Source: Escherichia coli (lineage in GTDB: Bacteria; Pseudomonadota; Gammaproteobacteria; Enterobacterales; Enterobacteriaceae). Taken from it: 15,366 nt of DNA. The notes under the pieces were generated by a model. It had not been told where the DNA came from and ran no database searches. It saw only the letters and a list, made by a program, of their open reading frames with translations. Every line of letters begins with the position of its first letter. Position 1 is the first letter of the stretch. The stretch lies in the NCBI RefSeq assembly GCF_003334315.1, contig NZ_QOWR01000075.1. The stretch is one strand, 5' to 3'. This document shows, in pieces, positions 1-9,565 of this stretch. Both the position numbers and the translations under genes were made by a program.

Positions 1-105
1 ATTATATCGAATGTGATTACAATCGGTGGCGGCGGCACAGTTGGTGTGGCGGCCTCAGTCCGGAACAATTTGAAAACAAGAACCTCGCTTAGGCCTGTGT
101 CCATA

Positions 106-483
106 TTACGTGGGTAGGATCAGATCAGGAACAGCTTTAACAGTAGCTTCTTGTTGTGTCTTGGCTTCTTGTCTAGCTTCTTCTTGTGGAATATCTACCA
201 CTTGATAGACATTAGAACTTCCTGGTCGTGCATCTTTTATAATTAACCCCATTTCGAGCAATTTCTTAACCCTTTCCTCTGCTGCTCTTGGTGTTATGCC
301 AAAAACATCGCCTATCTTAGCGTAAGAGGGAAATGCACGATCAAACCCTTTCAGATAGCAGTAAAGATTTTTAGCACTATCTGTAAATTTATGCCCGTTT
401 ACTTGGCTTATTTTTAGAATCCACATAGGAACTTTTACAAATTGTTCTTCATTAATCATTAAAAATCTCCTTGATGTAATCAC
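106..483 (-). CDS. HTH_36-like winged-helix DNA-binding protein, 125 aa (putative replication-initiator-like or regulatory protein of the element)
   Basis: ORF MITSRRFLMINEEQFVKVPMWILK...; the central segment SAKNLYCYLKGFDRAFPSYAKIGDVFGITPRAAEERVKKLLEMGLI has the pattern I associate with the HTH_36 family found in phage/plasmid Rep-like proteins. Strong RBS: the minus strand reads AAGGAGA about 7 nt before the ATG. Last gene of a tightly packed three-gene operon. Confidence 0.55.
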   Translation of the reverse strand: MITSRRFLMINEEQFVKVPMWILKISQVNGHKFTDSAKNLYCYLKGFDRAFPSYAKIGDVFGITPRAAEERVKKLLEMGLIIKDARPGSSNVYQVVDIPQEEARQEAKTQQEATVKAVPDLILPT

Positions 484-512
484 GCTCTATGGCGCTACTA
501 TGGTGATAAAAA

Positions 513-683
513 TCACTTGCTTTTATTTGAGAGTGTTTCAGCCTCTCTTTTCAACATATCAAGAATGTAATCTGTGACAGTGATACGTCTACTTCTGGCT
601 TCTTTAAATAACACCTGAAATACTTCATCAGGAATATGAAAGCAAGTGCGTGGTTGTCTTTTCTTTTCTGTAGTTTCGCTCAT
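513..683 (-). CDS. Small ribbon-helix-helix-like (CopG/Arc-type) protein, 56 aa; absent from the supplied ORF track (below length cutoff)
   Basis: Hand translation of the minus strand: MSETTEKKRQPRTCFHIPDEVFQVLFKEARSRRITVTDYILDMLKREAETLSNKSK, stop TGA (complement at 513-515). The pattern basic N-terminus, beta-strand (TCFHIPDEV), helix (FQVLFKEARSRR), helix (ITVTDYILDMLK) is RHH-like. Strong RBS AAGGAG 6 nt upstream; 19-nt gap to the upstream gene and 29-nt gap to the downstream gene. Confidence 0.35.
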   Translation of the reverse strand: MSETTEKKRQPRTCFHIPDEVFQVLFKEARSRRITVTDYILDMLKREAETLSNKSK

Positions 684-702
684 AGTTTTCTCCTTCTATT
701 CT

Positions 703-891
703 TTACTCTGTTTCAGATTCTTTTTCATTTTTTCTTAATTCATCAATAATCTTGAGTGCTTCATTGAAGCAAGCTGCTCGCTCTGGATAACCTCGACTCC
801 TTGCCATATTACGATTCATTACTATTTGGTGGCGTGTAAGCTCACCTTTTTTAAATGCCGCGACAACGTGTTCCGATGTGAACCATTTCAT
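703..891 (-). CDS. Hypothetical small protein, 62 aa; first gene of the three-gene operon
   Basis: ORF MKWFTSEHVVAAFKKGELTRHQIVMNRNMARSRGYPERAACFNEALKIIDELRKNEKESETE with a strong RBS (minus strand TAAGGAGTTTTTT then ATG). I do not recognise a family. Confidence 0.4.
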   Translation of the reverse strand: MKWFTSEHVVAAFKKGELTRHQIVMNRNMARSRGYPERAACFNEALKIIDELRKNEKESETE

Positions 892-1122
892 AAAAAACTC
901 CTTATTCAGTTAAAAGAAAAACACCTTGCAAGCCTGACGGCTTCAAAGTGCATTGATTTTGATTATTTAGAGAAGAATGTTTTTCTGTCCCTCTAATACC
1001 TATTATTACATATAAAGAAACATTTGTCAATACCTTTTCACAAAAAATCTGATCTTTTTCATGTACTTACATTTTTTCTTAGCAATTCGTGCTCTTCTGT
1101 GTAGTGCTATTCTTCCTTATTG

Positions 1123-1145
1123 TCTAAAACGCTCTAAAACGCGTT
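1123..1145. repeat. Tandem 10-bp direct repeat tctaaaacgc x2 running into the palindrome AACGCGTT
   Basis: Seen directly: tctaaaacgc at 1123-1132 and 1133-1142, followed by a degenerate third unit (gttctaacga). Lies in the non-coding region upstream of the minus-strand operon. Confidence 0.4.
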
Positions 1146-1461
1146 CTAACGAGGTTTTGATAAAAGCAATACATTCCCTTATGTAATGGCTGTTTAGCTC
1201 GCCAGAGGCTTATTTAAGGGGCTTATTTTGTATTTGTTAGGTATATGAAAAGGTGATGGTAGATATAAGATAGAGAGTCACTTTATAAAACGCTCTGTAA
1301 AGCCCTGTAGTGAGTTTATATATGTAGGCAATGCGTTTCCATTCCCTACCCTGCTTAATGCTGTTAGAGAAGCATTTAGACCCCTTATTTTTAATTACCT
1401 AAAGTATCCTCTATACATTCCTGTTATGAAACACCTCTGAATCCTTCATAAAACACATTAT

Positions 1462-1517
1462 GACGCAAAGAACACTTTTCTAAGGTGATTCCCTTCCTGA
1501 ATGCTGTTTCTTGCGTC
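1462..1517. repeat. Imperfect inverted repeat, 13-nt arms (gacgcaaagaaca ... tgtttcttgcgtc), 30-nt spacer
   Basis: Seen directly; 11 of 13 positions are complementary. Possible operator or RNA hairpin. Confidence 0.4.
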
Positions 1518-1560
1518 AAAGAGCTACACAGAGCTTATAAAGCTATTATTAATAATAAAG

Positions 1561-1620
1561 TAGACAAAGTAAGTAAGATAAGTAAGTAAGATAACTAAGA
1601 TAGATAAGATTAATAAGATC
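1561..1620. repeat. Degenerate AT-rich short tandem repeat (aagtaag / ataagat units)
   Basis: Seen directly: aagtaagataagtaagtaagataactaagatagataagattaataagatc. Confidence 0.6.
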
Positions 1621-1630
1621 AGAATTCTCT

Positions 1631-1660
1631 TTCGGTGTCGCCTCTGGCTTTTCCACCGAA
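1631..1660. other. Hairpin-forming inverted repeat ttcggtg-N16-caccgaa
   Basis: Seen directly: 7-bp perfect arms with a T-rich loop (tcgcctctggcttttc), located just before the first 42-bp direct repeat. Confidence 0.35.
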
Positions 1661-1663
1661 AAC

Positions 1664-1828
1664 AATTACACAACTACAGAGAATAACGAGAGTTATTAAA
1701 TGTAGAAAGTGGAATTGTATTGAGGCTTAGTGAAATTACACGAGGAAAGCAGAGTGTAATTGAGCTTTAGCCGCTCTCTCTTCGAGTAATTACACAACTA
1801 CAGAGAATAACAGAGTTATTAAATGTAG
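1664..1828. repeat. Pair of 41/42-bp direct repeats (aattacacaactacagagaataac(g)agagttattaaatgtag) about 124 bp apart
   Basis: Seen directly: copy 1 at 1664-1705, copy 2 at 1788-1828, differing by a single g indel. Each contains the short palindrome aataac...gttatt and is followed by similar sequence (gaaagtggaatt / gagggtaatt). Confidence 0.7.
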
Positions 1829-1917
1829 GAGGGTAATTAAGAGTTAGAGAGAGTTAACACATAAGCAATCAGTATGATTGGTTAGGTGATTACTCTTCTG
1901 CGCACAGCGCAATAGTA

Positions 1918-1960
1918 TTTCTTCGTGGGCGTTACCGCCAACGATAGTTACACGAAGAAA
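1918..1960. other. Strong stem-loop: 10-bp perfect inverted repeat tttcttcgtg / cacgaagaaa enclosing a nested ggcg-ttac-cgcc hairpin, within a locally GC-richer segment (about 1860-2075); candidate structured RNA or protein-binding site
   Basis: Seen directly. The 75-codon minus-strand ORF over this segment has no obvious RBS or protein-like composition, so I favour a structural element over a CDS. Confidence 0.4.
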
Positions 1961-2128
1961 GTAACGCTTTGCTTTCGGTGTGAGCGGAACGGGCCAGCCA
2001 CGAAGCCCAAAGGTAGCGGAGTAAGGCTGCTTGCCAGAGAGTGAAGCTAACGCCGGAAGGCAAAAGATCATATAAATAAATATATAATATTATAATTTAA
2101 TAAGTAATTTAATAAATGATCTAATAGG

Positions 2129-2262
2129 TAACAGAATTCTGTGGGGGTGTCTAACAGTTTTCTGTGGGGGTGTCTAACAGAATTCTGTTAGGGTGGGGTA
2201 ACAGAATTTTGTTAGGGTAAAAATCTCTTTAAAAGTTAAGATTAACAGAATTCTGTGGGGGG
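2129..2262. repeat. Repeat family A: palindrome (t)AACAGAATTCTGT(T) followed by G-runs (gtggggg); direct repeat ctgtgggggtgtctaacag x2
   Basis: Seen directly: copies starting near 2129, 2176, 2199 (degenerate, aattttgtt) and 2243, with a fifth at 2538. ACAGAATTCTGT is a perfect 12-bp palindrome, a likely dimeric DNA-binding-protein site. Confidence 0.7.
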
Positions 2263-2325
2263 TAGCTCACAGTGACCTACCCCCTAGTTCACTATGACCT
2301 ACCCCCCTAGGTCACAGTGACCTAT
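2263..2325. repeat. Iteron cluster 1 (family B): three roughly 21-bp units tag(c/t)tcac(a/t)(g/a)tgacctacccc; the third is the perfect palindrome AGGTCACAGTGACCT
   Basis: Seen directly: 2263-2284, 2285-2307 and 2307-2325; the palindrome is at 2309-2323. Confidence 0.7.
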
Positions 2326-2349
2326 ATAGTATAAAGAATATTATTTATA

Positions 2350-2377
2350 TTATTTAATTATAGTATTTAATTATAGT
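2350..2377. repeat. AT-rich 13-bp tandem repeat (atttaattatagt x2) in a roughly 50-bp A+T tract; candidate DNA-unwinding element
   Basis: Seen directly, lying between iteron families B and C. Iterons next to an AT-rich tract is the classical origin layout. Confidence 0.45.
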
Positions 2378-2385
2378 ATTGGTGG

Positions 2386-2483
2386 AACTCATTTCCTAGG
2401 TAGGTAGGAACTAATTTCCTAAGTAGGTAGGAAACCACTTCCTAGGTTACTTCCTAAATAGATCGGAAATCATTTCCTAGGTG
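2386..2483. repeat. Repeat family C: (a/c)tttcctagg(taggtagga) units at roughly 22-bp spacing (4-5 copies); contains the palindrome CCTAGG
   Basis: Seen directly: tttcctagg at 2392, tttcctaag at 2414, cttcctagg at 2438, cttcctaaa at 2451, tttcctagg at 2473. Confidence 0.6.
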
Positions 2484-2498
2484 TTATTTATACTTATC

Positions 2499-2535
2499 GG
2501 GTATCAGTTTTGATAGGGGTATCAGACTTGATAGG
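2499..2535. repeat. Repeat family D: gggtatcag(tt/ac)ttgatag x2 in tandem, 19-bp period
   Basis: Seen directly at 2499-2516 and 2517/2518-2535. Confidence 0.6.
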
Positions 2536-2556
2536 GGTAACAGAATTCTGTGGGGG

Positions 2557-2618
2557 TAGTTCACTATGACCTACCCCTAGTTCACTGTGAGCTACCCCTA
2601 GTTCACTGTGAGCTACCG
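2557..2618. repeat. Iteron cluster 2 (family B): three head-to-tail 21-bp units tagttcac(t)(a/g)tga(c/g)ctacc(cc)
   Basis: Seen directly: 2557-2577, 2578-2598 and 2599-2618, with exact 21-bp periodicity (two helical turns), as expected for Rep-binding iterons. Confidence 0.75.
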
Positions 2619-2712
2619 TTACATCCAATCATCTGTCGATGTAACATATCGTTACTACCAACTTTCTTACAAAGAGCATTTCAGATAGCTGAATGTAACC
2701 TCTCGTTACATC
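2617..2712. repeat. Palindrome-rich block: gttacatc-N12-gatgtaac, gtaac-atatc-gttac, and cgttacatcc repeated (2617 and 2703)
   Basis: Seen directly. Confidence 0.5.
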
Positions 2713-2729
2713 CATTTGTCACATAGCAC

Positions 2730-3210
2730 TCTGTGTAATGCCTTTCTATGTGTGTGCCATAATCCCCCTATATTCCCTGTGTAAATCATAGAATAATGCT
2801 CTCTATTCCCTGTGTAATTCCCTACTAAAAATCAATGAAAAAGTAGCTTAAAGTTGCAATTCTTACTTTCTTCACTTTTACATCACTTTCGCAAAGCCTT
2901 GTGTAATGCGGCTTACAGAGCACCATCAGAAATTGTTGGCTAAAAATTATTCTGCTTGTTTCTGAACGAGTTTTCTCGTTTGTGCAAATTTTAAAATTTA
3001 TTTTGTTTTTACAGCCTTATTTCGTGTAATGCGTGGCATAGCAAGCCCTTTTCTTGTGTTGTCAAGACATTTGGCAACGTTCAAACATCTGTTTAGAAAT
3101 GCCAAATTGTTGATCTAACAAATAAACCTGTATAAACAGAACACCATTTAATCTATTCCCCTGTGTATCCATTAGGCATACCAAATGAATACAGCTAAAT
3201 CGTGTAATAT
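2730..3210. repeat. Dispersed motif (c)tgtgtaat(g) recurring about 7 times, including the direct repeat tattccctgtgtaa x2 (2770-2818)
   Basis: Seen directly near 2733, 2779, 2811, 2901, 3026, 3161 (variant tgtgtatcc) and 3203. The region is non-coding and leads up to the recombinase gene. Confidence 0.45.
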
Positions 3211-3262
3211 TCCGTACCCATAAGGCTTGAAACAGACCAAATGAATACGGTATACTCATTTG
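3169..3262. promoter_or_regulatory. Putative res/hix-like recombinase binding region: duplicated motif cat(t/a)aggc..accaaatgaatac(a/g)g plus the palindrome caaatga-N11-tcatttg
   Basis: Seen directly: copy 1 at 3169-3194, copy 2 at 3217-3250, palindrome at 3238-3262 with the palindromic core gtatac. The location immediately 5' of a resolvase-family gene is where res sites sit in Tn3-family and plasmid resolution systems. Confidence 0.4.
3227..3256 (+). promoter_or_regulatory. Putative sigma70 promoter of the recombinase gene (-35 TTGAAA, 18-bp spacer, -10 TATACT)
   Basis: -35 at 3227-3232, -10 at 3251-3256, about 45 nt upstream of the ATG at 3302. The -10 lies inside the palindrome, which would suggest autoregulation. 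Sequence-pattern inference only. Confidence 0.35.
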
Positions 3263-3301
3263 CATTTAAGTAGTGCCAAATCGACACATTAAGAGGATTT
3301 T

Positions 3302-3841
3302 ATGAGCAATATCGGTTATAAGCGTGTGAGCACTGTAGATCAGAACACTGATCGCCAGCTTGCAGGAGTAACTCTCGATAAAGTCTTTGAAGATAAGCTG
3401 TCTGGTAAAGACACTAACCGCCCAGGCTTACAAGCGTGTTTAGCCTATCTGAGAGAAGGCGACACCTTACACGTGCACTCTCTCGACCGTTTAGGACGTA
3501 ACACCTTAGACATCCTTGCTTTAGTTGAACAACTTAATAATCGAGGTGTAATTGTTCGATTTCACAAAGAAGGAATCATTGCAGACATTACAAGCGCGAT
3601 GGGAAAGATGATGCTTACGATGTTGTCGGCAGTTGCAACGTGTGAACGTGAACTGATGTTAGAACGTAAACGAGAAGCGCAAGCCGTCAATCCTACAAAA
3701 CGTGGTAATGGAAAAGCAGTGGATCGAGAAGGTATAAAGAAAGCCCTTTCTGATGGCCTGTCAGTGCGTAAAACCGCCGAGAGCTTTAATGTTGCTCCTT
3801 CAACGGTGCAACGTATCAAGAAGGAAGAAGAGGAGGCGTAA
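3302..3841 (+). CDS. Small serine recombinase (resolvase/invertase family), 179 aa
   Basis: N-terminal GYKRVSTVDQ is the catalytic-serine motif of serine recombinases. Conserved blocks FEDKLSG, RPGL, LDRLGR and SAVATCERELMLER resemble the Tn3 TnpR, Gin and Hin layout. A C-terminal HTH is present (LSVRKTAESFNVAPSTVQRIKK). RBS AAGAGGA lies 5 nt upstream. Not identical to the Pin or Gin sequences I recall. Confidence 0.85.
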   Translation: MSNIGYKRVSTVDQNTDRQLAGVTLDKVFEDKLSGKDTNRPGLQACLAYLREGDTLHVHSLDRLGRNTLDILALVEQLNNRGVIVRFHKEGIIADITSAMGKMMLTMLSAVATCERELMLERKREAQAVNPTKRGNGKAVDREGIKKALSDGLSVRKTAESFNVAPSTVQRIKKEEEEA

Positions 3842-3850
3842 TGCCTCCTT
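3829..3850 (+). terminator. Possible hairpin at the recombinase stop (ggaggcg-taa-tgcctcc)
   Basis: 6-bp GC stem spanning the stop codon, followed by ttgatattt. Weak T-tract, so low confidence. Confidence 0.25.
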
Positions 3851-4077
3851 GATATTTGAGAATTGTCGCTGCGTGGACCTGACGGCGCTGATCTTCTCGT
3901 TAAGCGATGATCACGTATGCGCCGATTTCAGAGAAAAAGACAGTAACTGAACTCACTATGAAGGCTAAACGTATCTTTACACTTGATGAAAACGTTCAAA
4001 AAACAACCTAACCCCAAAATTCAACAAATTGCAACACATTGTTTTTAAAAGAAAATTAAATCTACATCAAATATTGG

Positions 4078-4106
4078 TTGACGTAGATTGAGGTGAATAG
4101 TAGACT
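4078..4106 (+). promoter_or_regulatory. Putative promoter for the small hydrophobic ORF (-35 TTGACG, 17-bp spacer, -10 TAGACT)
   Basis: Pattern match only; would give a leader of about 70 nt before the ATG at 4183. Confidence 0.25.
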
Positions 4107-4182
4107 ATTAGGGTAAATTACCACCCTTGTAACATCATTTAATGCATGTTCTAATCTTCCTATCGTAAAACCGGAGGAAGTT

Positions 4183-4341
4183 ATGCATTTACTTTCAAAA
4201 CATCTTCACACTATTCACTTTCTCGTTATTGATGTATTCGTTGTGGCTATTAGTTACCGCATTTGCATCGCTTCCAGTGAAGAGATGGACGCTGTTGCAA
4301 TTATTGCTCAAGCAATGGCGATATTAACTAAACGACTTTAA
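4183..4341 (+). CDS. Small hydrophobic protein, 52 aa (candidate small membrane protein or toxin-like peptide); absent from the ORF track
   Basis: Hand translation: MHLLSKHLHTIHFLVIDVFVVAISYRICIASSEEMDAVAIIAQAMAILTKRL, stop TAA at 4339-4341. Strong RBS GGAGGAAG 5-6 nt upstream. A roughly 20-residue hydrophobic stretch is consistent with one transmembrane helix. Confidence 0.35.
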   Translation: MHLLSKHLHTIHFLVIDVFVVAISYRICIASSEEMDAVAIIAQAMAILTKRL

Positions 4342-4354
4342 TAATTTCACTATC

Positions 4355-4398
4355 AGGCGCATAAACACATCTTTGATCGCTGGATGTGTTATGCGCCT
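4355..4398. terminator. Long near-perfect inverted repeat (aggcgcataaacacatc - N11 - gatgtgttatgcgcct) between the two convergent small ORFs; candidate bidirectional terminator or operator
   Basis: Seen directly: arms at 4355-4371 and 4383-4398, 16 of 17 positions paired with one bulged A. The position between convergent ORFs fits a terminator, though flanking T-tracts are weak. Confidence 0.45.
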
Positions 4399-4407
4399 AC
4401 TGGTGAT

Positions 4408-4560
4408 TCAATCCTTAAGCCATTTCAACTCACTAAGGAGTTTTCTTTCTTCGTTCTCTCGTTGCTTTCGCTCTAGCCAGGCTTTTCCCTCTGGCGTAGA
4501 CAGGAACTTACGAGCGTGAATCTTGCGGTTATTACGTTTTATAGCTGCAATGTTTTTCAT
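4408..4560 (-). CDS. Small basic protein, 50 aa, hypothetical; absent from the ORF track
   Basis: Hand translation of the minus strand: MKNIAAIKRNNRKIHARKFLSTPEGKAWLERKQRENEERKLLSELKWLKD, stop TGA (complement at 4408-4410). A possible RBS (AGAGG) lies upstream. I do not recognise a family. Confidence 0.3.
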   Translation of the reverse strand: MKNIAAIKRNNRKIHARKFLSTPEGKAWLERKQRENEERKLLSELKWLKD

Positions 4561-5166
4561 CGTGTTGCCTCTGTATTCATATGAAAATTAACAAGTTACA
4601 TACTACACAGGGAGACTACGCATAAAACACAATACAAGTAAAGATACATTTTCAAGACAATAGGAGCCATAAAGCGCCTTTGATGGTTATACCAAAAAAT
4701 AAGCGCCGTAGGCGTATCCACTAAAAAGGGCTTTTTCACAAAAGCTATGAAGTCTTAGCAGTTCTTCTCTTATCAGGCACCCGTTGTACTCCGGTGGACG
4801 AAACCGTGCTAGAGCTTGATTCTTTCCCGATCAAGTTAGGTTTTGAAGAGGTGGGCTTTAATCCACTATTGCACTTAAAACTCTTCCCATCATTTAGCCT
4901 GTTTATCCTCTGCAACGTCTCACGACGTGTAGCATCATTGGACACCGCGCCAGGTGTGGAACATCTTGCTAAGAGTTTTGGTAGAAGGTTTAGAGACGGT
5001 GGCACGTCTTCCAGCTTCAAAGGAACTTGTTACGAGGTTGAGCCTGGGAACTACTCGCCCATACGTGTTACACTACCAAAGCCCATAACAACGTATAGGC
5101 GTTTGTAAGTGATAACAGAAGATACAATTTCTTAGAGAAGTTAAGCTAAGTTATTGATTTTCTTGA

Positions 5167-5242
5167 TGGTGCCGATAATAGGAGTCGAACCTACGACCTT
5201 CGCATTACGAATGCGCTGCTCTACCAACTGAGCTATATCGGC
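5167..5242 (-). tRNA. thrW: tRNA-Thr (anticodon CGU), thrW-like
   Basis: The minus strand reads GCCGATATAGCTCAGTTGGTAGAGCAGCGCATTCGTAATGCGAAGGTCGTAGGTTCGACTCCTATTATCGGCACCA: cloverleaf features, anticodon loop TTCGTAA, encoded CCA. It sits downstream of proA as in E. coli. Confidence 0.95.
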
Positions 5243-5356: not shown

Positions 5357-6610
5357 TTACGCACGAATGGTGTAATCACCAATGCCGATCCACTTGTAAG
5401 TGGTCAGTGCTTCCAGCCCCATTGGGCCACGCGCGTGGAGTTTTTGTGTGCTTACCGCCACTTCCGCACCCAGACCAAACTGGCCGCCGTCGGTAAAACG
5501 CGTAGAGGCGTTAACGTAAACAGCGGACGAATCCACTTCGTTAACAAAACGCTGGGCGTTGCGCATATCGCGGGTCAGGATCGCATCGGAGTGTTGTGTG
5601 CCGTGTTCACGAATATGGGCGATGGCATCGTCAAGATCGCTGACGATTTTGACGTTCAAATCTAATGACAGAAACTCATCGTCATACTCTTCGGCTTTAA
5701 CAGCAACCACCTTCGCAGGGCCTGCCTGCAACTGCGCCAGTGCAGCTGCATCTGCGTGTAATGTCACGCCGCTTTCCGCCATTTGTTTGCTTAATGCGGG
5801 CAGGAAGCTATCGGCGATGTTTTTATTCACCAGCAACGTTTCAACCGTATTACATGTGCTCGGACGCTGAGTTTTCGCGTTGACGATCACTTTTAATGCT
5901 TCAGCGATCTCTACACTTTCATCAACGTAAATATGGCATACGCCTATACCACCTGTGATCACCGGGATTGTCGACTGTTCACGGCACAGTTTATGCAAAC
6001 CAGCGCCACCACGCGGGATCAGCATGTCGATGTATTTATCCATACGCAGCATTTCACTGACCAGCGCACGGTCAGGATTATCAATCGCCTGCACGGCACC
6101 CGCCGGTAAGCCACAGGATTTCAGGGCGTCCTGAATCACCGCCACCGTTGCCGCGTTAGTGCGACAGGTTTCTTTGCCACCACGCAGGATCACCGCATTA
6201 CCGGTTTTCAGGCACAGCGAAGCGACATCAACCGTCACGTTCGGGCGCGCTTCATAAATCACGCCAATAACCCCCAGCGGTACGCGACGACGCTCAAGAC
6301 GCAGGCCGCTGTCCAGTACGCCGCCATCGATTACCTGCCCCACCGGATCGGCGAGGTTACACACCTGGCGTACATCGTCGGCAATGCCTTTCAGCCGTGC
6401 GGGCGTCAGTGCCAGACGGTCAAGCATCGCTTCGCTAAGGCCATTGGCTCGCGCGTCAGCAACATCCTGGGCGTTAGCGTTGAGGATGATTTCGCTTTGT
6501 GCTTCCAGTTCATCGGCGATTTTTTCCAGCACGCGATTTTTTTCGCGGCTGGAGAGTTGCGCTAATTTATACGAGGCTTGCTTCGCGGCAATGCCCATTT
6601 GTTCCAGCAT
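5357..6610 (-). CDS. proA: Gamma-glutamyl phosphate reductase (glutamate-5-semialdehyde dehydrogenase), 417 aa
   Basis: Full-length [40 protein letters not shown]... recognised as E. coli ProA, immediately downstream of proB (11-nt gap). Confidence 0.97.
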
Positions 6611-6621
6611 CAGCCTGCTCC

Positions 6622-7725
6622 TTAACGGGTAATCATGTCATCACGGTGAACGGCAACCGGGCCGTATTCATATCCCAGTATTGCATCAATTTCTTGCGAG
6701 TGGTGTCCGGCAATACGGCGTAATGCATCGCTGTTGTAACGACTGACACCGTGGGCGATATCGCGACCTTCGAGGTTGCAAATGCGGATGACTTCACCAC
6801 GCGAGAAATTGCCAGTCACGCTTTTAATGCCTTTCGGCAACAGGGAGCTGCCGCGTTCAAGAATGGCGGCAGTTGCCCCTTCATCTACCGTGATTTCACC
6901 CGCCGGCGGCGCACCGAAAATCCAGCGTTTACGGTTTTCAAGCGGAGTCGCCTGGGCATGGAACAGCGTACCGACGGAAATGCCTTCCATCACATCACCA
7001 ATAACGCCCGGCTTGCTGCCCGCGGCAATAATGGTGTCGATACCCGCACGGCAAGCCACGTCAGCGGCCTGCAATTTGGTACTCATGCCGCCAGTTCCGA
7101 GGCCTGAAACGCTGTCACCGGCAATCGCGCGCAGTGCGTCATCAATGCCGTAAACATCTTTAATCAGTTCTGCCTGCGGATTGCTGCGCGGGTCAGCGGT
7201 ATACAAACCTTTTTGATCGGTCAGCAGCAACAGTTTATCGGCACCCGCAAGAATCGCCGCCAGCGCAGAAAGGTTATCGTTATCGCCGACCTTAATCTCT
7301 GCCGTAGCGACAGCATCGTTCTCATTGATTACCGGAACGATATTGTTATCGAGCAACGCTCGCAGGGTGTCGCGGGCGTTCAGGAAGCGTTCACGGTCTT
7401 CCATATCAGCACGGGTCAGCAGCATTTGCCCGACGTGAATGCCATAAATCGAAAACAGCTGTTCCCACAGTTGAATCAGTCGACTCTGCCCTACCGCCGC
7501 CAGCAATTGTTTCGAGGCGATAGTCGCTGGCAGTTCCGGGTAACCCAGGTGCTCACGTCCGGCGGCAATCGCGCCCGACGTCACAATAACAATCCGATGC
7601 CCGGCGGCATGTAACTGCGCGCACTGGCGAACAAGTTCAACGATATGGGCACGGTTCAGACGGCGCGATCCGCCTGTTAGCACACTGGTGCCGAGTTTTA
7701 CCACCAGCGTCTGGCTGTCACTCAT
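6622..7725 (-). CDS. proB: Glutamate 5-kinase, 367 aa
   Basis: The ORF track opens at 7812, but the ProB N-terminus [19 protein letters not shown] begins at the ATG whose complement is at 7723-7725. A C-terminal PUA-like region is present. Confidence 0.95.
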
Positions 7726-7913
7726 GATTCTCTGCCATTCAATTTTAGGAAAAATGATATCAAACGAACGTTTTAGCAGGACTGTCGTCGGTTGCCAACC
7801 ATCTGCGAGCAAAGCATGGCGTTTTGTTGCGCGGGATCAGCAAGCCTAGCGGCAGTTGTTTACGCTTTTATTACAGATTTAATAAATTACCACATTTTAA
7901 GAATATTATTAAT

Positions 7914-7931
7914 CTGTAATATATCTTTAAC
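7914..7931 (+). promoter_or_regulatory. Putative Pho box (PhoB site) of the phoE promoter: CTGTAAT-ATAT-CTTTAAC
   Basis: Two 7-bp direct repeats separated by 4 AT-rich bp, about 80 nt upstream of the phoE start, matching the Pho-box architecture known for Pho-regulon promoters. An inverted copy (attacagatt) occurs at about 7869-7878. Confidence 0.45.
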
Positions 7932-8012
7932 AATCTCAGGTTAAAAACTTTCCTGTTTTCAACGGGACTCTCCCGCTGAATATTCGCGCGTTAATTAAAA
8001 TCAGGAATGAAA

Positions 8013-9068
8013 ATGAAAAAGAGCACTCTGGCATTAGTGGTGATGGGCATTGTGGCATCTGCATCCGTACAGGCCGCAGAAATATATAACAAAGACAGTA
8101 ATAAACTGGATGTCTATGGCAAAGTTAAAGCCATGCATTATATGAGTGATAACGACAGTAAAGATGGCGACCAGAGTTATATCCGTTTTGGTTTTAAAGG
8201 CGAAACACAAATTAACGATCAACTGACTGGTTATGGTCGTTGGGAAGCAGAGTTTGCCGGTAATAAAGCAGAGAGTGATACTGCACAGCAAAAAACGCGT
8301 CTCGCTTTTGCCGGGTTGAAATATAAAGATTTGGGTTCTTTCGATTATGGTCGTAACCTGGGCGCGTTGTATGACGTGGAAGCCTGGACCGATATGTTCC
8401 CGGAATTTGGTGGCGACTCCTCGGCGCAGACCGACAACTTTATGACCAAACGCGCCAGCGGTCTGGCGACGTATCGGAACACCGACTTCTTCGGCGTTAT
8501 CGATGGCCTGAACTTAACCCTGCAATATCAAGGGAAAAACGAAAACCGCGACGTTAAAAAGCAAAACGGCGATGGCTTCGGTACGTCATTGACATATGAC
8601 TTTGGCGGCAGCGATTTCGCCATTAGTGGGGCCTATACCAACTCAGATCGCACCAACGAGCAGAACCTGCAAAGCCGTGGCACAGGCAAGCGTGCAGAAG
8701 CATGGGCAACAGGTCTGAAATACGATGCCAATAATATTTATCTGGCAACTTTCTATTCTGAAACACGCAAAATGACGCCAATAACTGGCGGCTTTGCCAA
8801 TAAGACACAGAACTTTGAAGCGGTCGCTCAATACCAGTTTGACTTTGGTCTGCGTCCATCGCTGGGTTATGTCTTATCGAAAGGGAAAGATATTGAAGGT
8901 ATCGGTGATGAAGATCTGGTCAATTATATCGACGTCGGTGCTACGTATTATTTCAACAAAAATATGTCAGCGTTTGTTGATTATAAAATCAACCAACTGG
9001 ATAGCGATAACAAATTGAATATTAATAATGATGATATTGTCGCGGTTGGCATGACCTATCAGTTTTAA
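8013..9068 (+). CDS. phoE: Phosphate-starvation-inducible outer membrane porin PhoE, 351 aa
   Basis: Signal peptide [21 protein letters not shown] followed by AEIYNKD...; C-terminal ...VAVGMTYQF with terminal Phe, typical of porins. I chose the ATG at 8013 rather than 8007, based on the SD AGGA at 8003-8006 and the recalled PhoE N-terminus. Confidence 0.95.

Positions 9069-9106: not shown

Positions 9107-9565
<459 letters not shown>

Follow-up and report, generated by a model that had tools for sequence, protein, structure and literature searches.

The question raised by the proBA/phoE locus of Escherichia coli is how PhoB acts on the spacer between phoE and proB, and in particular why what looks like half of a second PhoB site should lie there in the opposite orientation. 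The window analysed here, a stretch of 15,366 nucleotides from contig NZ_QOWR01000075.1 (RefSeq assembly GCF_003334315.1), covers this locus. Over proA-proB and phoE-crl it matches E. coli chromosomes with 100% identity, and the 287-bp phoE-proB spacer shows no difference from that of K-12 MG1655; a window coordinate is converted by taking it from 268113, which gives the MG1655 position. The two genes are transcribed away from each other, an arrangement retained in 79 of the 80 loci that were compared.

6622 to 7725, minus strand: coding sequence of proB, the glutamate 5-kinase gene, transcribed away from phoE
8013 to 9068, plus strand: phoE coding sequence (phosphoporin, 351 aa), from the RefSeq annotation of identical DNA

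It is very probable that the segment between them is the PhoB-controlled regulatory region of phoE and that a second, inverted PhoB box within it serves as an auxiliary upstream element. A Pho box is taken here to be two CTGTCAT-like 7-bp direct repeats with a 4-bp A/T-rich spacer, giving an 11-bp period, and sites were scored with a PhoB matrix derived from 58 ChIP-seq sites that Fitzgerald et al. (2023, PMC10294691) list in their Table 1, with the phoE entry excluded. The promoter-proximal elements are as follows.

7914 to 7931, plus strand: classical phoE Pho box, CTGTAATATATCTTTAAC, which replaces the -35 element
7942 to 7947, plus strand: phoE -10 hexamer TAAAAA, weak and without the final T, 10 nt past the 18-mer box
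7953 to 7955, plus strand: predicted phoE transcription start, placed from the -10 position alone

The main box (CTGTAAT at 7914-7920, ATAT at 7921-7924 and CTTTAAC at 7925-7931) departs from the Pho-box consensus at a single position, and the degenerate form of that consensus finds three matches in the window, all of them in the phoE-proB spacer, against an expectation of 0.17. At 15.45 bits the register 7915-7932 (plus strand) has the top PhoB-matrix score among 30,698 window positions and stands close to the median of ChIP-bound PhoB sites (median 15.1 bits, 10th percentile 10.7), and a site of at least 15.45 bits was found in 3 of 1000 shuffles of the spacer. The offset from this box to the -10 equals that of phoA (TATAGT), phoB (CATAAT), phnC (CACGAT) and yoaI (TAACAA), and the -10 itself reads TAAAAC or TAAAAA in 64 of 66 unique orthologous sequences. 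The initial annotation had placed a Pho box at 7914-7931 and this is borne out, with exact letters, the best matrix score, the canonical -10 offset and a main Pho box in all 80 species loci; alignment with a characterised promoter also leaves it in place, the plus-strand box of Salmonella phoE occupying the same columns. Expression of phoE depends on PhoB, its RNA dropping from 68,155 in the wild type to 69 when phoB is deleted (Fitzgerald et al. 2023, PMC10294691).

Upstream of the main box lies a second one that faces the other way, together with an inverted repeat that connects the two.

7859 to 7876, minus strand: complete inverted Pho box CTGTAAT-AAAA-GCGTAAA, recognised from consensus, matrix, ChIP-seq motif and conservation
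7869 to 7879, unstranded: left arm of an exact 11-nt inverted repeat, TATTACAGATT, containing the attacagatt picked out by the initial annotation
7911 to 7921, unstranded: right arm of the same repeat, AATCTGTAATA

It had been noted that AATCTGTAAT, at 7911-7920 on the plus strand, has an inverted copy upstream, and an exact reverse complement, ATTACAGATT, does exist, but at 7870-7879, one base away from the 7869-7878 first assigned to it. The inverted half-site is present as claimed, yet it does not stand alone: it is the first repeat (CTGTAAT, 7876-7870, read on the minus strand) of a full box which runs on through AAAA (7869-7866) to a second repeat, GCGTAAA (7865-7859), that had been missed, and the separation given as about 40 bp is 57 bp when measured from box to box. 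The 10-mer by itself is weak evidence, with two matches at one mismatch or fewer arising in 69 of 200 window shuffles and 43 of 1000 dinucleotide-shuffled versions of the intergenic region containing an exact inverted repeat of at least 10 nt; the repeat can be followed to 20 nt at 80% complementarity (7869-7888 with 7902-7921). The Pho-box reading, unlike the 10-mer repeat, is well above chance, as an opposed pair of sites each scoring at least 10.16 bits was seen in 0 of 1000 shuffles of the spacer. The inverted repeat exists because the spacer holds two opposed copies of one motif, and it has no role of its own.

The E. coli copy of the inverted box is a mediocre match, with three mismatches to the consensus and a degenerate GCGTAAA repeat; in the matrix register 7858-7875 (minus strand) it scores 10.2 bits, which ranks 8th among the 30,698 positions of the window and, compared with ChIP-bound sites, falls around the 10th percentile. 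An overlapping register, 7869-7886 (minus strand), reaches 11.9 bits and is 3rd among the same positions. This overlapping register, also given as 7870-7887, is the one called by Yang et al. (2012); it takes in the 10-mer first noticed and a third A/T-rich "repeat", and was considered as the conserved site and rejected, its median across species being only 2.25 bits as against 12.8 bits for 7858-7875. The AATC/GATT extension that makes up the 10-mer is specific to E. coli and lies outside the conserved part.

Published binding data place PhoB at the same spot. A PhoB ChIP-seq peak annotated phoE/proB, and listed as H-NS-bound, lies at 260277 (window 7836), and the MEME motif under it is TGTAATAAAAGCGTAAAC, that is 7875-7858 on the minus strand (Fitzgerald et al. 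2023, PMC10294691), whilst ChIP-chip gave the motif ATTTATTAAATCTGTAAT in an overlapping register of the upstream site (Yang et al. 2012, PMC3465305). For Salmonella phoE both a minus-strand and a plus-strand box have been listed (PMC10715179, Table S3). The suggestion that there is an additional PhoB site in the opposite orientation is therefore supported by the ChIP-seq motif, the ChIP-chip motif and the homologous Salmonella minus-strand box. Each of the two genome-wide studies (PMC10294691, PMC3465305) gives one upstream motif, in different registers, and neither lists the classical box, which is not in the ChIP-seq table because it falls outside the 100-bp motif-discovery window. Of the two published registers, the comparison between species shows 7876-7859 to be the conserved one.

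Relative to the inverted box the centre of the ChIP-seq peak is displaced by 30.5 bp toward proB, and 87.5 bp separate it from the main box; for calibration, peak centres at eight accepted Pho promoters fall between -1.5 and +22.5 bp of the motif centre. We conclude that the inverted box is part of what PhoB occupies in vivo. The 57 bp between the boxes is below the resolution of ChIP-seq, and each box is probably occupied in its own right. That the peak centre should lie past the inverted box toward proB is left unexplained by a simple role as a helper of phoE. Tommassen, Koster and Overduin (in J Mol Biol, 1987) are said to have found that an element upstream of the phoE promoter is required for efficient expression, and reportedly noted within this upstream element a Pho-box-like sequence in inverted orientation. 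Two opposed Pho boxes at phoE are ordinary, already described biology, and the initial annotation was right to call them expected for phoE and not novel, the main box being textbook material and the inverted site being listed in published ChIP and motif studies.

Comparison between species shows what is held constant at this promoter. Orthologous phoE loci were taken from 80 species, with subsets of 63, 66 and 68 unique sequences in the separate alignments and counts. Among 70 Enterobacteriaceae sequences, 69 have the inverted box at 56-58 bp from the main box and one has it at 68 bp (57+11); taken locus by locus, the best minus-strand match is 57 bp away in 62 loci, 58 bp in four, 56 bp in one and 68 bp in one, and two E. 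coli loci return "46" where the overlapping register is preferred. The spacing from box to box is much steadier than the distances to the start codons of phoE and proB, which differ by tens of bp among loci. At the 57-bp offset an inverted box of at least 8 bits is found in 64 of the 80 loci; it is missing from Pantoea, Erwinia and Hafnia, and many genera carry a near-perfect version, for example TGTCATAAAATTGTCATC in Raoultella terrigena (20.7 bits). The sole locus with the 68-bp spacing is that of Pseudocitrobacter faecalis, which has an 11-bp insertion in the region some 100-168 bp upstream of phoE, and such an insertion of one helical turn hints that the helical phase between the boxes may matter. 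A further conserved feature lies midway between the boxes.

7893 to 7909, unstranded: conserved A/T tract, consensus TTTTTTAAAAnTATTCT, from the high-information columns of 63 unique sequences

This tract may act as a bend or as a contact for the C-terminal domain of the RNA polymerase alpha subunit, and the near-invariant spacing, the +11 variant and the central tract together suggest a phased architecture of two PhoB dimers.

It is well established for Pho promoters generally that PhoB substitutes for the -35 element and recruits sigma-70 RNA polymerase, and all the features seen at phoE agree with this. At phoE, on limitation of phosphate, a phosphorylated PhoB dimer would occupy both direct repeats of the 7914-7931 box in a head-to-tail arrangement and from the -35 position would recruit sigma-70 RNA polymerase to the poor -10 TAAAAA, raising phoE about 1000-fold. 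A second dimer would sit on 7876-7859 as an auxiliary upstream element facing away from phoE, an orientation that prevents it from touching sigma region 4 at the phoE promoter in the usual way. How it helps we can only infer: it might hold PhoB or RNA polymerase more firmly on the weak main box, acting across the phased, A/T-rich spacer, or alternatively it might counteract H-NS or drive a divergent promoter.

This account has to be weighed against several others, two of which involve promoters directed toward proB and require the following features.

7770 to 7798, minus strand: constitutive proB promoter, with -35 TTGGCA (7798-7793), a 17-nt spacer and TGc-TAAAAC with its -10 at 7775-7770; start at 7764
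7843 to 7848, minus strand: -10-like hexamer TAGGCT, candidate -10 toward proBA, 10 nt past the inverted box
7825 to 7855, unstranded: conserved GC-rich block TTGTTGCGCGGGATCAGCAAGCcTAGCGGCA, defined by alignment conservation and containing GATC at 7835-7838

It would seem very improbable, and we strongly disfavour the idea, that the upstream copy resembles a Pho box by chance, in DNA that is A/T-rich and bound by H-NS, and that the main box alone is functional. A 10-nt inverted repeat does appear in about 4% of shuffles, PhoB and H-NS have common A/T-rich preferences in a region that is listed as H-NS-bound, and many PhoB ChIP sites are transcriptionally inert, yet position, orientation and spacing are kept in about 70 species, often with far better matches than that of E. 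coli, the shuffles never gave the opposed pair (0 of 1000), and the ChIP peak is centred closer to the upstream box than to the main box. Even less credible is a reading of the inverted repeat as a DNA cruciform, an RNA hairpin or a binding site for some symmetric, dimeric protein that is not PhoB. The segment 7866-7924, taken as single-stranded DNA, folds at -7.9 kcal/mol (z = -4.0 relative to shuffles), but the repeat stem, weak and A/T-rich, is placed upstream of the two inferred transcription starts and hence in neither RNA, and outside E. coli the complementarity is reduced to the Pho half-sites, as would be expected of a by-product of opposed boxes; a hairpin or cruciform role was rejected on these grounds, the stem being a weak, untranscribed by-product that is not conserved beyond the Pho repeats. 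A comparison of the phoE-proB spacer with Rfam gave no match to an RNA family. The idea that the inverted box is an operator, at which PhoB would block a phosphate-independent promoter toward proB and so silence or insulate divergent transcription during phoE induction, is improbable, although it has more in its favour than a coincidence of sequence. In phosphate-replete cells Cappable-seq detects proB-strand starts at window 7876, 7764, 7746 and 7735 (PMC4782308). The first of these (U00096.2 259461) is the first base of the inverted box and scores 7.3 as against 7.7 for the main proB start; it could be served by a plausible sigma-70 promoter between the boxes (TTAATA at 7912-7907, a 17-nt spacer and TGG-TAATTT at 7889-7884), which PhoB on the inverted box would occlude by covering +1 to +18. 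Against this, the -10 of the 7876 promoter is conserved only in Escherichia and Klebsiella, whereas the inverted box is conserved more widely, and proBA RNA in the phoB deletion is slightly lower, not higher, a direction in the RNA-seq that opposes repression as the main role. The start at 7764 (U00096.2 259573) agrees with that predicted for the constitutive proB promoter, which is conserved in all aligned genera, Erwiniaceae included.

The reading that comes nearest to competing with an auxiliary role, and is compatible with it, is that the inverted box serves mainly as the -35 substitute of a second PhoB-dependent promoter directed toward proBA, any stimulation of phoE then being a side effect of divergent transcription or of RNA polymerase bound close by; we regard this as possible, if short of an even chance. 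The layout would be the box at 7876-7859, a 10-nt gap, the -10 TAGGCT at 7848-7843 and a minus-strand start at about 7836-7837. In the hexamer at offset 27 from the inverted box, positions 2 and 6, which are A(-11) and T(-7), are the same in 68 of 68 unique sequences, whilst positions 3-5 vary (TACGCT, TAGGCT, CAGAAT, TATTTT, TAGGTT); among offsets 20-35 this invariant A/T pattern occurs at 27 alone, the same offset is used by phoA, phoB, phnC, yoaI and phoE itself, and the minus-strand G at -14 is conserved as well. The TAnnnT pattern thus has the look of a -10-element conservation signature at the canonical Pho-promoter distance. In Pantoea and Erwinia (Erwiniaceae) the inverted box and the GC-rich block have been lost together, with the main box and the constitutive proB promoter kept. 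Furthermore, the ChIP-seq peak is centred (7836) to the proB side of the inverted box, and the wild type has about 1.45-1.5-fold more proB and proA RNA than the phoB deletion (q = 0.046 and 0.021). This effect is small, however, and was not counted as regulation by Fitzgerald et al. (PMC10294691), proB was unchanged in the study of Yang et al. (PMC3465305), and the Citrobacter, Salmonella and Yang et al. supplements contain no independent proBA expression data under Pho induction. Cappable-seq found no proB-strand start near 7837, in a phosphate-replete medium where PhoB is inactive and which is hence no real test (PMC4782308). Conservation also runs beyond the -10 into GGATC and further, for which a -10 alone is insufficient as an explanation, and a link with phoE is indicated by the 57 bp that almost invariably separate the inverted box from the main one. 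The conserved GGATC at 7834-7838 includes a Dam site and lies within the GC-rich block, which is conserved across Enterobacteriaceae; the bases flanking GGATC are conserved as well.

On these patterns of conservation, and with the displaced ChIP peak, the hexamer 10 nt past the inverted box suggests a putative mirror-image PhoB-dependent promoter toward proBA, and it appears to be new; this candidate divergent Pho promoter is the only part of the present analysis that may be so. In its fullest form the proposal, which is tentative and on balance somewhat unlikely, would be that the inverted box and TAnnnT make up an undescribed, Enterobacteriaceae-wide PhoB promoter toward proBA, that the spacer is a mirror-symmetric pair of promoters around a shared A/T tract, and that the polymerase or supercoiling of the divergent member stimulates phoE. 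If true it would link proline biosynthesis modestly to phosphate starvation, and would explain both how a reversed box can aid phoE and why the ChIP peak is shifted toward proB.

Returning to the auxiliary PhoB box, its arrangement can be set beside other promoters of this kind. The phoE promoter of E. coli K-12 was reportedly characterised by Tommassen and co-workers. As mapped by ChIP (PMC3465305, PMC10294691) it has the same sequence as the window, a Pho box at the -35 position, a PhoB peak and full PhoB dependence. Salmonella enterica phoE has an upstream minus-strand box and a promoter plus-strand box at homologous positions, with different repeat sequences (GGTAATAAAATGGTCAA) (PMC10715179, Table S3), and at the phoE locus of S. 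enterica subsp. arizonae the spacing of the boxes is 56 bp. Like the multi-box promoters of pstS, ugpB and phnC, phoE has more than one PhoB dimer site, built of 7-bp repeats with an 11-bp period, and a promoter-proximal box 10 nt from the -10. In those promoters, however, the extra boxes are tandem, adjacent and in the same orientation (in 22-bp steps at pstS), whereas the second box of phoE is inverted and lies 57 bp off, across the conserved A/T tract. In promoters of the OmpR/PhoB family of regulators, such as those of the Salmonella PhoP regulon, activator boxes are found in either orientation and at upstream positions too; the likeness to phoE is that a reverse-oriented upstream dimer of a winged-helix response regulator contributes to activation, though the regulator differs and membership is not claimed. 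We know of no other reversed upstream PhoB box.

The finding itself is minor, amounting to a rediscovery of the textbook Pho box of phoE and of the inverted PhoB site upstream of it, and the additions to it are modest: identification of the conserved register, the 57-bp (or 57+11) spacing across about 70 species and a testable hypothesis of a proBA promoter.

Several other features of the window were observed. In the phoE 5' UTR (7950-8012, plus strand) TTCCTGTTTTCAA at 7950-7962 is complementary to TTAAAATCAGGAA at 7995-8007, which includes the Shine-Dalgarno sequence, and a small hairpin, CGGGA-CTC-TCCCG (7963-7975), shows apparently compensatory variation between genera. The fold of this UTR as a single sequence is not significant (z = -0.42) and RNAalifold returned no consensus structure for it; GCGCGT at 7986-7991 is invariant.

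Downstream of phoE, crl (9107-9508, minus strand) is intact in the window, and that of MG1655 is interrupted by IS1; the window does not come from K-12. At the other end a phage-like island occupies approximately 1-5242, with an integrase at about 3787-5001 together with antirepressor, Ash-family and HTH genes, and is inserted at a tRNA-Thr gene (about 5167-5242) adjoining proA. Inside the island TTACATCCATTTGTCACA at 2706-2723 (plus strand) scores 14.0 bits, the second-best PhoB-matrix match in the window; it probably arose by chance or is inert. Finally, TGTAATACGGTTGAAACG at 5837-5854 (minus strand), inside proA, is an intragenic PhoB ChIP-seq site with the peak centre about 10 bp from the motif; it is listed at MG1655 262258 (window 5855) and is transcriptionally inert (Fitzgerald et al., PMC10294691).
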